Origin: a virus
Lineage: Duplodnaviria; Heunggongvirae; Uroviricota; Caudoviricetes
Strand: one strand, 5' to 3'
Virus record (IMG/VR): IMGVR_UViG_2695420540_000009
DNA length: 14,990 nt
Shown here: one piece after another, positions 3,852 through 9,100 of the stretch
Layout: every line of letters starts with the position of its first letter
How positions within the stretch are numbered: position 1 is the stretch's first letter
The notes under the pieces: generated by a model
Databases searched by the model: none
Told to the model about the DNA's origin: nothing
Seen by the model: the letters and a program-made list of their open reading frames with translations, nothing else
Made by a program: the position numbers and the translations under genes

Positions 3852-4038
3852 GTTTTCAGACAACCAGTGCGTCACCTTTTTGAAGGCGCTTTAAAGCACG
3901 TTTTAATCCAGGTCGGCCTGTCCTTGTTCCGCTTAATTTATCTTCAAATATTTGTTCATATCCTGCACAAACAAGAGCGTTTCGTTGCAGGTCTGTATTC
4001 TGGTCATTTGTTGATACCCTTACATAGCCAATCAGCAC
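3852..4038 (-). pseudogene. pin: Pin/Gin/Hin-type serine DNA invertase, 5' ~61 codons only; in-frame TGA at 3856..3858 and an abrupt junction with ipaH-derived sequence at N 3851
   Basis: ORF 3856..4062 (-). Translation VLIGYVRVSTNDQNTDLQRNALVCAGYEQIFEDKLSGTRTGRPGLKRALKRLQKGDALVV matches the N-terminal catalytic domain of Gin/Pin invertases as I recall them (catalytic Ser in VRVST). Probable GTG start at 4038 preceded by GGGAGA. The frame stops where the conserved W of the LVVWKLDRLGR motif is expected (TGG -> TGA), and the C-terminal HTH domain is absent from the window. Confidence 0.8.
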
Positions 4039-4092
4039 GCTGAATCTCCCGTCCAAAAGCACAAATCATGCCATGCAGGCCAGAAACCGCCA

Positions 4093-4118
4093 TTATCTAA
4101 AACCTCGGTTTACGAGAA
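4093..4118. other. gix/pix-like 26-bp invertase crossover site (TTATCTAAAACCTCGGTTTACGAGAA)
   Basis: Close match to the Gin/Pin/Hin crossover-site pattern (TTATCCAAAACC-TCGGTTTACAGGAA, from memory), 55 bp from the invertase start. Its inverted partner is at 7009..7034 (22 of 26 positions identical after reverse complement). Confidence 0.8.
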
Positions 4119-5027
4119 CTCGGCACAAGCGGGGAGAAAATACCGTTACTCAGTACAGCGAATACCTGGACTAATCGACAAACATTCAGCGGTGGCCTTT
4201 CTGGTGAACTATCCGGCAATGCTTCTACAGCTGCAAAATTAAAAACTGCCAGGAAAATAAGCAATGTGGCTTTTGATGGTTCCTCCGATATCACATTAAA
4301 AGCAAGTCATGTTGGTGCGTTTGCCTTAGGGAAAACAGGAAGCACCGTTGCGAATGATAAAGCAGTTGGATGGAACTGGAGTAGCGGAGCCTATAACGCA
4401 ACTATTAGTGGTGCATCAACGTTAATTATTCATTTTTATATGGGAGAAGGAAGTTGTCCTGCAGCTCAGTTTCGGATTAATTATAAAAATGGCGGTATTT
4501 TTTATCGTTCAGCCCGTGATGGTTATGGTTTTGAAGCCGACTGGTCCGAATTTTACACCACCAGAAAACCTTCAGCAGGAGATGTTGGTGCACTGCCGTT
4601 ATCTGGTGGTCAACTGAATGGTGCACTGGGTATCGGAACATCCAGTGCTCTTGGCGGTAATTCGATTGTATTGGGTGATAATGACACGGGCTTTAAACAA
4701 AAAGGCGATGGTAATCTGGATGTTTATGCTAATAACGTCCATGTTATGCGCTTTGTCTCCGGAAGCATTCAAAGTAATAAAACCATAAATATTACGGGAC
4801 GTGTTAATCCCTCGGATTACGGTAACTTTGATTCCCGCTATGTGAGAGATGTCAGACTTGGCACACGAGTTGTTTAGACCATGAAGAAAGGCGTGATGTA
4901 TGAAAAATCAGGCCATGTAATCACGGGGCTTGGTATTATCGGTGAAGTCGATGGTGATGATCCGGCAGTATTCAGACCAATACAAAAGTTAATTAACGGA
5001 ACATGGTATAACGTATCGCAGGTATAA
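4101..5027 (+). CDS. stf: promoterless alternative tail-fibre C-terminal (variable) cassette, open from the crossover site; interrupted by an in-frame TAG at 4875..4877
   Basis: Frame is open from the TAA inside the crossover site (4098..4100) to TAA at 5025..5027, apart from TAG at 4875..4877. It starts NLGLREL..., parallel to YLGLQE in the expressed fibre at the other site, shares the [12 protein letters not shown](K/R)Q.GDG motif, and its last 18 residues ([17 protein letters not shown]) parallel the expressed fibre C-terminus ([17 protein letters not shown]). The ORF track reports only 4266..4877. Confidence 0.7.
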
Positions 5028-5029
5028 TC

Positions 5030-5563: not shown

Positions 5564-5568
5564 GAGAA

Positions 5569-5596
5569 GGCCCGCTATCGGGCCTTAATTTTTATT
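5569..5596. terminator. hairpin GGCCCG-CTAT-CGGGCC followed by a T-rich tract, between the convergent tfa genes
   Basis: Seen in sequence at 5569..5584 with TTAATTTTTATT following; overlaps the stop of the minus-strand tfa. Confidence 0.5.
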
Positions 5597-6119
5597 CAGG
5601 CTTTTGTGGCCATTCAGGATTTGCCGTATCCACACGGCTGACCAGAACACTGTAGCGTTCCCATGCTTCCAGTCGTGTGCGTTCCTCGTCTGTTGCCATA
5701 TTCAGCCTGACAGCGCGTTCCAGCGGCTGGATGACTGATTCAGCTTCGGAAAGCAATGCGGCCTTTTGTGATTCGGCCTGTTGTTGCAGTTCCTGTTCTG
5801 TATATTCCCTCTTTACTACTTTACCATCCAGAAACATCCATTTTCCGTTATTGTCTGCGTGACGATTTGCCGTAATATCAGGAACTTCAACTATGCTTAG
5901 CCCTTCAGGATTAATAGTTGAAACGTCTTTACTGACAGCAACGATGATGTTGTTCTCATCGTAAGCAATTTTTATGGTGTCTGGCTGAAAATTCTTTTGT
6001 TCCTCATACCAGTTTTTGCCATCTTCGCAAAAGAGCCATACCACGCCCGCTTTTTTAGTTAGCTGGTATTGTTCCGGTGTTTTCGGATTCCCGGCCTTAA
6101 TATTTTTCAGGTGCATCAT
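5592..6119 (-). CDS. tfa: tail fibre assembly protein (chaperone for the currently expressed fibre)
   Basis: ORF 5592..6155 (-). The track start is TTG; the likely real start is ATG at 6119 ([22 protein letters not shown]...), preceded by GGGGAG and 1 nt after the stf stop (TAA 6121..6123). Confidence 0.85.
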
Positions 6120-6120
6120 C

Positions 6121-9100
6121 TTAAACACTCCCCACGTTGTACCATATTCCCCCAATCAATTTCTGAATTGGCCTTCTGGCAACAGTGTCGACAATATCAT
6201 CCGCATTGCTGTTAATTGCGGCTGTTAAAACATAACCTGACGCATCGCCAAAGCCGTAGTCGCGCCATACGTTTTTATATTCAATGCTGCCAAGACGAAT
6301 ATCCCGAACGACATGATTATGCAGCCATGTGCTTAACCAGTTGTTTTCCCACACTGAACCATAAATATCGCCACTAGACGCAACTTGCGCACCACTTCCC
6401 AGCGCAAATCCCCCATCTGTTTTAAAAATGAAATCACCACCACCATCTGAACCGTTATTAATATGAACACCATCACCACCGTTATCTTTCCACAAAAACA
6501 TACGAATTCTTCCGTCTTCGTTGGCGAATGTAATGTGGTGGCGGTAATTACTTTTTAATCTAAAATTGCTGCCATTAGATTCAATATCTTTATAAAGATG
6601 TAATCCTAACTCATCAATATGTCCGATGCGCGAACCATTTGAATAGAAGCTAATAATACCATCTCCATCTTGCCTAAATCCGGTGTCGTTATCTCCCAGA
6701 ACAATGGAGTTTTCACCCAGTGCGTTATCAGTAGCTCCAATAGCTAGACCTCCTTTAATTTTGGCCCCGTGGCTGACAGATATAGCACCTGTTCTCAGAT
6801 TTATAGCGAATGGCCTTAATGGGCCGATATTACCGTTTTCGCCTTGTCCTTCAGCCGTCGGAATGAAATGAAGAAAATCTTCTGAACGACGGAAAATTAG
6901 ACCGAAGGTATCATTGAAAATTCGCAGCGCATTCACCGTGCCAATTTTCAGTTCTCCGGTCATTTTATCGCCGGAACGCTGAACGGCGTTACCAGCCTTG
7001 TTTACCGTTTCCTGTAAACCGAGGTATTCGATAACGGCAGCAACGGTCGATTTCGCAAGAATATCCCGCCCGACTTTTGTCAGGGTTGCCAGGCTGGCGA
7101 CATCATTCCCCGTAAAATACGGAAACTTGCCTGCCGCAGTAGTAAGTCCGGCCAGCGCCGTCAGGGTGGCATCTTTCGGTTGCTTACCCGCAAGCGCGTT
7201 AGTCATGGTGGTCGCAAAATTCGGGTCGTTGCCCAGCGCCGCAGCCAGCTCGTTCAGCGTGTTCAGTGCATCAGGTGACGAATCTACAAGGGCGGCAATC
7301 GCAGCCATAACGAAAGCCGTGCTTGCGATTTGGGTATTATTCGTTCCCTGTCGCGCAGTTGGTGTTGTTGGCGTTCCGGTCAGTGCAGGACTATTTAAGG
7401 GCGCTTTCTTGTTCGTTTCACCCATTACCGCCTTAACCGCTTTTGGCGTTGCCGCCAGTGACTCGGAAGTGCTGTTGGTCGCACTGCTGAGCTGTACTAT
7501 CCCCTTTTTCGTCGTGCTCGCATCCTCAAGCGCCACGGCGGATGCAATATCCTCTGCCCGTTTTGCTGCTGTCTCGGCGCGCGTTGCCGCGGATTCAGCA
7601 GCAACTTTGCTCTGAGATGCAGCCGTCGCACTGCCTGCCGCCTCTGATGCTTTCGTTGTTGCTGTCGTGGCACTACCTTTCGCTGCTGACGCTTGTCTGG
7701 TCGCCTCATCTTTTGAAGCAGACGCAGATGATGCCGATGACGCCGCTGAACTGGCTGACGATGCGGCTGCTGCCTTAGAGGAAGCAGCATTGTCTGCTGA
7801 AGTCTTTGCATTTGTTTCAGAGGTTTTTGCTGCAGAAGCAGACCTCGCTGCTGCAGTGGCTTGCTCAGTGGCTTTGCCAGCCTTCGTTGTGGCTGTTGAA
7901 GCGGATGATGCGGCGCTTTCTGCCGATTTTCCGGCGGCGGTGGCACTGGCTGAGGCCTGCCCGGCACTTGTTGACGCGGCACTGGCAGATAATGCAGCCG
8001 CTGTTTTTGAACCTGCCGCAGCTGAGGCGCTCTGTCCCGCTGCTGTTTCAGAAGACTTAGCGTTCGTCTCGGACGTTTTTGCCGCCTTCGCGGAATTTCC
8101 TGCCGCCGTTGCCGAGGAAGCTGCACTACTGGCACTTGATGATGCATTCGTTTCTGAAGATTTCGCTGCCTCTTTTGAGGCCGCCGCACCCCGTGCCGAG
8201 GTGGCAGCTTCTGACGCCTTCGTGGTCGCTGTGGATGCAGAAGTGGCTGCCGATTTTTGTGATGCTGCGGCATTCGTTTCTGACGTTTTCGCGGCACTGG
8301 CGCTGGTAGCTGCCGCGCTTTTTGATGACTCTGCAGCAGCACTTTTTGCTGCTTCACGGGCCTTTGTCGATGCCGTTCCTGCGCTGGAAGACGCTGACTG
8401 AGCCGACGACGCGGCCTGTCCGGCTGACGTGCTGGCGGCACGTGCTGAGGCTGCAGCATCGGTTGCATGAGTTGCCGCCTCGCTGGCTGATTTTTTCGCG
8501 GCTGCCGTATTCTGTGCAACCGCGGAGGCGTTACGTGACACCTCTTCCACCATCAGCTCAAAACGGCGCAGNNNNNNNNNNGATGATGCCGATGACGCCG
8601 CCGAACTGGCGGACGATGCCGCTGCCGTTTTTGAGGATTCTGCACGGGTTTCCGACGCTTTCGCGTTCGTTTCGGATGTCTTCGCTGCGGAAGCTGACCT
8701 CGCTGCTGCCGTGGCCTGCTCAGTGGCTTCGCCAGCCTTCGTTGTGGCTGTTGAAGCGGATGATGCGGCGCTTTCTGCCGATTTTCCGGCGGCGGTGGCA
8801 CTGGCTGAGGCCTGCCCGGCACTTGTTGACGCGGCACTGGCAGATGATGCAGCCGCTGTTTTTGAGCCTGCCGCAGCTGAGGCACTCTGTTCCGCTGCCG
8901 TCTCAGAAGACTTAGCGTTCGTCTCGGACGTTTTTGCCGCTTTCGCGGAATTGCCTGCCGCCGTTGCCGAGGAAGCGGAACTACTGGCGCTCGAGGCTGC
9001 GCTCGTTTCTGATGATTTCGCTGCCTCTTTTGAGGCCGCCGCATCCCGGGCTGAGGTGGCAGCTTCTGACGCCTTCGTGGTCGCGGCGGATGCAGAAATG

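Follow-up and report, generated by a model that had tools for sequence, protein, structure and literature searches.

When the recombinase gene beside a tail-fibre inversion switch has died, is the switch locked? The question is raised by IMG/VR virus record IMGVR_UViG_2695420540_000009, a 14,990-bp stretch of Caudoviricetes DNA (hereafter the window) in which two inverted recombination sites bracket alternative ends of a side tail-fibre gene, stf, next to the stub of a serine invertase gene. An earlier interpretation based on the letters of this stretch (the sequence-only reading) took the locus for an invertible tail-fibre switch like the Mu G segment or e14 P region, and one that appears locked. 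We propose, with a probability of about 0.85, that it is a Din-family (Gin/Cin/Pin/Hin-type) tail-fibre inversion switch in a defective lambdoid prophage by trpA/ompW, the Shigella orthologue of prophage Phi4 of Escherichia coli EC958, and that its invertase acts in trans. The kind of element named at the outset is borne out by the sites, the mirror-image cassettes, the stub, and the presence of both orientations in relatives. The lock is not: the same dead invertase accompanies both orientations in Shigella sonnei, the two states number 374 and 150 in E. coli, and an inversion has been seen in PacBio data (PMC4134206).

The two crossover sites are the firmest part of the case. A repeat search returns inverted arms of 30 nt at 4089-4118 and 7009-7038 that are 83% complementary. 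Scanning for Gin/Cin/Pin-type sites with the 14-position Din-site consensus TTNNNNNAAACCNNGGTTTNNNNNAA (up to 2 mismatches allowed, with 200 shuffles as control) yields exactly two matches in the 14,990 bp, at 4093-4118 and 7009-7034, where 0.07 would be expected; none of the 200 shuffles gives two. The pair of inverted, gix-like 26-bp sites picked out from the letters is therefore present. The same scan recovers just the two known sites each in D108 (G segment), P7 (the annotated cixL and cixR), and e14 (P segment), and nothing else in them, which confirms the relatedness to known invertase sites; it also finds exactly two sites each in L001, a P2-like E. coli prophage whose invertase is intact, and in prophage Phi1 of EC958. 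Two nucleotides distinguish the proximal site from the invertase-proximal gix of D108, and its invertase-side half-site is identical. The central dinucleotide, TC on the plus strand at one site and GA at the other (Table 1), is the same dinucleotide in inverted orientation, and only 12 bp (ACCTCGGTTTAC) are shared exactly between the sites. Both are also read in one codon register, (x)TT-ATC-xAA-xAC-CTC-GGT-TTA-xxx-GAA, whether one follows the frame of stf or that of the silent cassette. An exchange at the central dinucleotide thus connects either cassette, in frame, with the constant part of stf, and the frame readings agree with the original description of one site lying in frame inside stf and the other opening the silent cassette in the same register.

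Domain matches and reading frames also confirm that the sites enclose two alternative C-terminal fibre cassettes, and that a tfa chaperone gene belongs to each. The chaperone genes stand head to head between the cassettes and form a 159-nt inverted repeat of 71% identity. The exact tfa1 protein is widespread in Shigella and E. coli assemblies, and tfa2 is called as a gene of 175 amino acids (aa) in S. sonnei L013. Cassette 2 is identical in L013 and L018, where the entire stf is 918 aa. Cassette 1 does contain the in-frame stop that had been noticed: a premature TAG at 4875-4877 removes its last 49 residues. E. coli B-2207, which carries the same cassette-1 tip allele (4 differences in 246 bp), has CAG at this position; judged against that allele, the TAG is a C-to-T nonsense change (CAG->TAG). 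Genomes of E. coli sequence type 131 (ST131) carry a different cassette-1 tip allele, which is intact.

Table 1. Coordinates of the inversion switch and adjoining features within the window
Feature	Position	Strand	Remarks
Scaffold join, single N	3851		Between the ipaH contig (175-3850) and the switch contig (3852-8571); non-biological junction
Invertase (pin/gin-type) pseudogene stub	3852..4038	-	GTG start at 4038; catalytic Ser9 kept; TGG->TGA at 3856-3858 (codon 61)
Recombinational enhancer region by homology (putative)	3953..4020	-	nt 19-86 of the invertase open reading frame
Invertase-proximal 26-bp crossover site	4093..4118	+	TTATCTAAAACC-TC-GGTTTACGAGAA; crossover dinucleotide 4105-4106
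Cassette 1, alternative stf C-terminus, silent in the present orientation	4107..5027	+	gp37_C domain
tfa1, chaperone paired with cassette 1, 177 aa	5030..5563	+	PF02413 (Caudo_TAP), E=5e-34
tfa2, chaperone paired with cassette 2, 175 aa from ATG	5592..6119	-	PF02413, E=1e-36
Cassette 2, stf C-terminus now joined to the constant part	6121..7020	-	gp37_trimer region; reading frame intact
Crossover site within stf	7009..7034	+	TTCCTGTAAACC-GA-GGTATTCGATAA; crossover dinucleotide 7021-7022
stf constant (N-proximal) part up to contig end	7021..8571	-	Open reading frame continues past the 10-N gap into a paralogous contig

The invertase gene itself is dead. Its 60 sense codons are followed by TGA; the motif YVRVSTNDQ, with the catalytic serine, is retained, and the stub matches the Resolvase domain (PF00239) only at profile positions 2-69 of 145. 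The same 180-nt stub is labelled "recombinase family protein, incomplete, missing C-terminus" in E. coli records from the Prokaryotic Genome Annotation Pipeline (PGAP). In complete genomes, invertase homology runs about 25 codons further (to about codon 85), meets a second stop, and is then lost; a tfa fragment and a methyltransferase gene follow. The TGA at codon 61 is thus real and common to the complete genomes, and position 3852 is merely a contig end rather than a deletion junction. Because the N at 3851 joins two contigs, the extent of the stub cannot be read from the window, and the claim that only about 61 codons remain holds in one respect only: the gene is dead after 60 codons and a TGA, while the truncation at 3851/3852 is a scaffold gap and complete genomes retain about 85 codons. 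This pseudogene lacks the DNA-binding domain altogether and the greater part of the catalytic domain. No functional serine invertase, with a catalytic domain and a C-terminal helix-turn-helix, stands beside the segment, and since the adjoining gene is non-functional, the locus is an orphan substrate and not a complete autonomous member of the Din family.

The retained 5' part of the gene had been suggested to carry the recombinational enhancer, and the comparison with D108 and P7 agrees. The stub, with its upstream region, is nearly identical to D108 gin. In the P7 record, nt 19-86 of cin are marked as the enhancer (the annotation itself says "putative"), and over the corresponding stretch, 4020-3953, 67 of 68 positions are identical to D108 gin and 50 of 68 to P7 cin. 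Two Fis-like G-N13-C 15-mers fall within it (4003-4017 and 3954-3968), with 49 bp between their centres, and about 95 bp separate the proximal one from the middle of the left crossover site; for Hin, the proximal Fis site is about 100 bp from hixL (PMC3798978). These likenesses support the retention of a gin-type enhancer region, which would be predicted to function as such. On this evidence all of the cis elements appear to survive, and the enzyme alone appears to be missing.

Complete S. sonnei genomes contain the segment in either orientation. L019 (CP026802.1, S. sonnei ATCC 29930) and L020 are inverted relative to L013 and L018, with breakpoints within 4089-4113 and 7014-7038. At their recombinant sites, TTATCGAATACC-TC-GGTTTACGAGAA and TTCCTGTAAACC-GA-GGTTTTAGATAA, half-sites have been exchanged exactly about the central dinucleotide, and the crossover maps to the central 12 bp of the sites. 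L013 shows 0 mismatches to L019 and L020 in the 1485-bp left flank, dead invertase included, and 0 in the 2.9-kb segment; across the 5-kb right flank, L020 has 3 differences from L013, and L019 matches to about position 16449 and then diverges. Identical dead-invertase flanks in opposite orientations indicate that the inversion happened after the invertase had decayed. Annotation of L019 and L020 carries stf in frame across the recombinant site as a fused gene of 875 aa that stops at the TAG; an open reading frame (ORF) of 48 aa comes next.

The same polymorphism is common in E. coli. Among 5426 complete genomes, surveyed at a probe coverage of at least 80% with one probe spanning the truncated-invertase junction and cassette 1 (orientation A) and a second representing the inverted state (orientation B), 374 show A and 150 show B. 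Isolates with related names differ (4/0 from 4/1-1 and 4/4; U12A from U13A-U15A; S3, S4, and S9 from S2 and S5-S7). Both states occur in assembly GCF_001874485.1: the chromosome has A, and a 32.8-kb "extrachromosomal" duplicate of the trp-prophage region has B. The switch is therefore not locked for the window's allele, with both sites and the putative enhancer region intact, and a truncated neighbouring invertase does not imply a locked switch. As inversion occurs beside a dead invertase, residual switching in trans, offered earlier as a possibility, becomes the favoured reading.

One of these records deserves separate mention. L031 (NZ_CP015087.1, 32.8 kb, ST131), listed as "extrachromosomal" by RefSeq, is a frameshift-ridden copy of the chromosomal trp-prophage region (L032, NZ_CP015085.1) in which the segment is inverted. 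What was deposited as a replicon is a spurious contig of the alternative allele, of the kind that Forde et al. described, and it illustrates that invertible segments generate such contigs in long-read assemblies.

The locus has in fact been described before, in E. coli ST131. Forde et al. (2014; PLoS One 9:e104400; PMC4134206) list the Phi4 sites of EC958 in their Table 3 as TTATCGAATACCTCGGTTTACAGGAA and TTATCTAAAACCTCGGTTTACGAGAA; window 4093-4118 is identical to their Phi4_3prime, and the reverse complement of 7009-7034 to their Phi4_5prime. They report an alternative PacBio contig with the Phi4 segment inverted, note that the Phi4 invertase gene is severely truncated so that inversion must be in trans, and suggest the Phi1 invertase, whose sites are nearly identical (PMC4134206). 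An 812-bp probe (stub, site, and cassette 1) matches EC958 (H72, 1487474-1488285) and many ST131 genomes at 99.6% identity, and H72 contains the published Phi4_3prime site (c1487865..1487890). Phi4 and the Shigella locus share their context of trpA, ompW remnant, ash/rha, methyltransferase, stub, segment, stf, and lom, as well as the 60-codon stub. They differ in that the Shigella segment is shorter (2942 bp from site to site versus 3106 bp), its cassette 1 has a different C-terminal tip allele and the CAG->TAG change, its cassette 2 is about 96.6% identical, and many S. sonnei copies are further damaged by insertion sequence (IS) elements. The Shigella copy thus adds only further decay to a switch documented in 2014, and its biological weight is small; it illustrates that loss of its own invertase need not disable an invertible segment, provided that sites and enhancer persist and another prophage supplies the enzyme. 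At about 99.6% identity, this defective prophage and its invertase nonsense codon recur at the trpA/ompW-remnant position in ST131 (B2), NCTC86-like E. coli, and S. sonnei (L022, L030, L032, L013), which implies either old common ancestry or transfer by recombination.

Mechanistically, we propose that the locus would work as Gin and Hin do, with dimers at two sites, synapsis on a Fis-bound enhancer, cleavage at the central dinucleotide, rotation, and religation (McLean et al. 2013, PMC3798978). A serine invertase dimer would bind each 26-bp site, and the Fis-bound enhancer, within the 5' stub of the dead gene, would bring the two sites into synapsis. Both sites would then be cleaved at the central TC/GA dinucleotide, half of the complex would rotate, and religation would invert about 2.9 kb, exchanging the last ~300 codons of stf together with the co-transcribed tfa chaperone. 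The enzyme would be supplied by another prophage, for example the P2-like Phi1 in EC958.

Where would such an enzyme come from? With the local gene a pseudogene, it must come in trans from another prophage. Phi1 of EC958 is a candidate, with an intact 199-aa invertase that is identical to the stub at 56 of 60 positions and with near-identical crossover sites; for comparison, PinQ acts in trans on the e14 P segment (PMC12529663). A homologue search returned many Din-family invertases, including a Gin-like protein (P0116), labelled [Shigella sonnei] by one source, from a Mu-like prophage on draft contigs. In two assemblies (L026 versus L027, 4076-5990), this prophage, with Gp45-48, Com, Mom, and an intact P0116, carries its own tfa in opposite orientations; this hints that its G-type segment is active and makes P0116 a candidate for the trans-acting enzyme.

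Four points weigh against our interpretation. Where S. sonnei genomes differ in orientation, none of them could be shown to encode an intact Din-family invertase, and P0116 could not be placed in them. The enhancer is assigned by homology and by a record annotation that calls itself putative. The window gives just one consensus sequence, in one orientation, and flipping in its source strain is presumed by analogy with its relatives. Lastly, the Shigella fibre is under no strong, and no visible, selection, as its cassette-1 TAG and the damage by IS elements show.

The alternative that survives best, an unlikely one in our estimation, is that the locus is a frozen relic: the invertase is dead, and the segment is permanently fixed in its present orientation and eroding. 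The pseudogene and the nonsense codon in cassette 1 fit this account, as do most of the sampled complete S. sonnei genomes, which lost the right-hand site through an IS and a deletion and are really locked. However, the window's allele keeps both sites and the putative enhancer region, an identical dead invertase is found in both orientations with site-precise exchange between them, and both orientations occur in one assembly and in one EC958 culture (PMC4134206).

In L012, L014-L017, and 14 look-alikes that are not listed individually, which together make up most of the sampled complete genomes of S. sonnei, an IS and a deletion removed everything to the right of window position 6409; in L012 and L014-L017 the deletion takes the rest of stf, lom, J, and the right crossover site. 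Only these IS-linked deletion alleles are truly frozen, because the right-hand site is gone. The element belongs to the IS3 family and lies within cassette 2, at window 6405-6409 (from about 11380 in L012 and L014-L017; 11445-12601 in L021), and in L021 it is a simple insertion without deletion. In describing a decaying prophage, the sequence-only reading was right: the nonsense codon in cassette 1, the dead invertase, and the IS damage in relatives all speak for it.

A more speculative view, which we regard as improbable, holds that the orphan switch persists in ST131 and Shigella through host co-option, as a trans-controlled, phase-variable locus whose alternative Stf/Tfa products change the cell surface or prevent phages from adsorbing, as is reported for StfE2 of e14. 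Were this true, the stub would be retained under selection for its enhancer.

Very improbable, by our reckoning, is RecA-dependent homologous recombination between the inverted repeats in place of a site-specific invertase. Inverted repeats can recombine homologously, and no trans-acting invertase has been identified in S. sonnei. However, the stretch shared exactly by the sites is only 12 bp, and the exchange maps exactly there; such a length is below the usual minimum for RecA-mediated exchange. Exchange bypasses the far longer tfa inverted repeat of 159 nt, and the sites are canonical Din sites. Least credible of all is that the polymorphism is an assembly artefact of mis-oriented repeats in prophage tail-fibre regions, for although the window itself was badly assembled from short reads (seven contigs across paralogous prophages), hundreds of independently finished long-read genomes carry either orientation with clean reciprocal half-site exchange, and Forde et al. 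checked their reads and excluded adapter and hairpin artefacts (PMC4134206).

Among known systems, the Din-family switch proposed here shares its layout with the G segment of Mu/D108 with gin, in which the invertase is likewise transcribed away from the segment, the S/U and S'/U' genes are mirror images, and one site lies in frame in the fibre gene. It differs in its host, a lambdoid (J-lom-stf) remnant, in its pseudogene invertase, and in its cassette alleles. The e14 P segment, whose sites fit the same consensus, is also a fibre inversion in a cryptic prophage of E. coli that is flipped by the invertases of other prophages (PinQ/PinR; Kirigo et al. 2025, PMC12529663). In contrast, pinE of e14 is intact, the central dinucleotide there is TT/AA where the window has TC/GA, and a block of T2 adsorption by StfE2 is documented for e14 and not here (PMC12529663). 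The C segment of P1/P7 with cin shares the site consensus, the alternative fibre ends with chaperones, and, if the putative enhancer here is one, a Fis-dependent enhancer in the 5' part of the invertase gene; there, however, the 3' end of cin abuts the segment, and cixL overlaps the end of cin. Decayed Din-family invertases in Shigella prophage remnants reportedly have a precedent in the defective pinF of Shigella flexneri, ascribed to Tominaga et al. in 1991 (J Bacteriol). The same work is said to offer a precedent for cross-complementation among Hin, Gin, Cin, and Pin, and the pinF locus to be a different, e14-like one.

The remaining observations concern the window as an assembly. Runs of N occur at 134-174, 3851, 8572-8581, 10282-10391, 10458, and 11555 (41, 1, 10, 110, 1, and 1 bases), and wherever homology to complete genomes breaks off, one of these runs lies exactly there. 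Seven contigs, chained via paralogous prophage sequences, make up this draft short-read scaffold. Database masking was considered as a source of the N runs and ruled out, as the flanks of every run are non-collinear in complete genomes.

At the single N of position 3851, two unrelated regions meet. The part to its left (175-3850; IS110 fragment, tfa fragment, methyltransferase, and ipaH) has 99.9% identity to a locus near yehU/mlrA, and the part to its right (3852-8571) has 99.9% identity to a prophage remnant adjoining trpA; in one complete genome, CP032523.1, the two lie about 290 kb apart. Truncation of pin by an ipaH insertion is ruled out by the single-N junction, by this separation, and by the absence of the junction from every genome searched (complete E. 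coli genomes, the Shigella places sampled, and GTDB representatives). The ipaH/invertase adjacency is thus a scaffolding product, unsupported because the single N is a contig join. The ipaH gene is intact (2201-3844, plus strand, 547 aa) and encodes a type III secretion system effector with leucine-rich repeats and an NEL E3 ubiquitin ligase domain. The exact protein is found in S. sonnei 53G and other Shigella chromosomes, where a DUF4376 tail-fibre remnant, and not the invertase stub, comes after it. A 98.3% repeat comprising the tfa fragment and a class I S-adenosylmethionine-dependent methyltransferase gene (222 aa) is present at both the ipaH locus and the trp-adjacent locus (window 891-1885; L013 7634-8628; L002 8691-9685), and it probably misled the scaffolder.

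Other joins have created false genes. A 1213-aa stf ORF (6121-9762) spans the 10-N gap at 8572-8581, and the sequence beyond the gap (8582-9779) covers L013 12698-13875 again, at only 86.8% identity. Comparison of 7727-8571 with 8582-9450 shows that the part beyond the gap is an 87-88% paralogue of the same stf region, and the true stf is therefore about 918 aa, as in L013. This ORF and a 386-aa lom::J ORF are chimeric and cross gaps; the 1213/1211-aa stf and the 386-aa ORF have no exact-protein matches because both span scaffold gaps. In general, single-N joins in draft scaffolds can yield false adjacencies, such as ipaH/pin, and false long ORFs, such as these two. The "lom::J fusion" (10709-11869) arises from an apparent 1.1-kb tandem duplication and has scaffold gaps at its bounds. 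The two copies, 10453-11554 and 11681-12782, comprise the J C-terminus and the lom N-terminus at 96.3% identity, and the apparent duplication is most likely two paralogous lambdoid prophages chained together.

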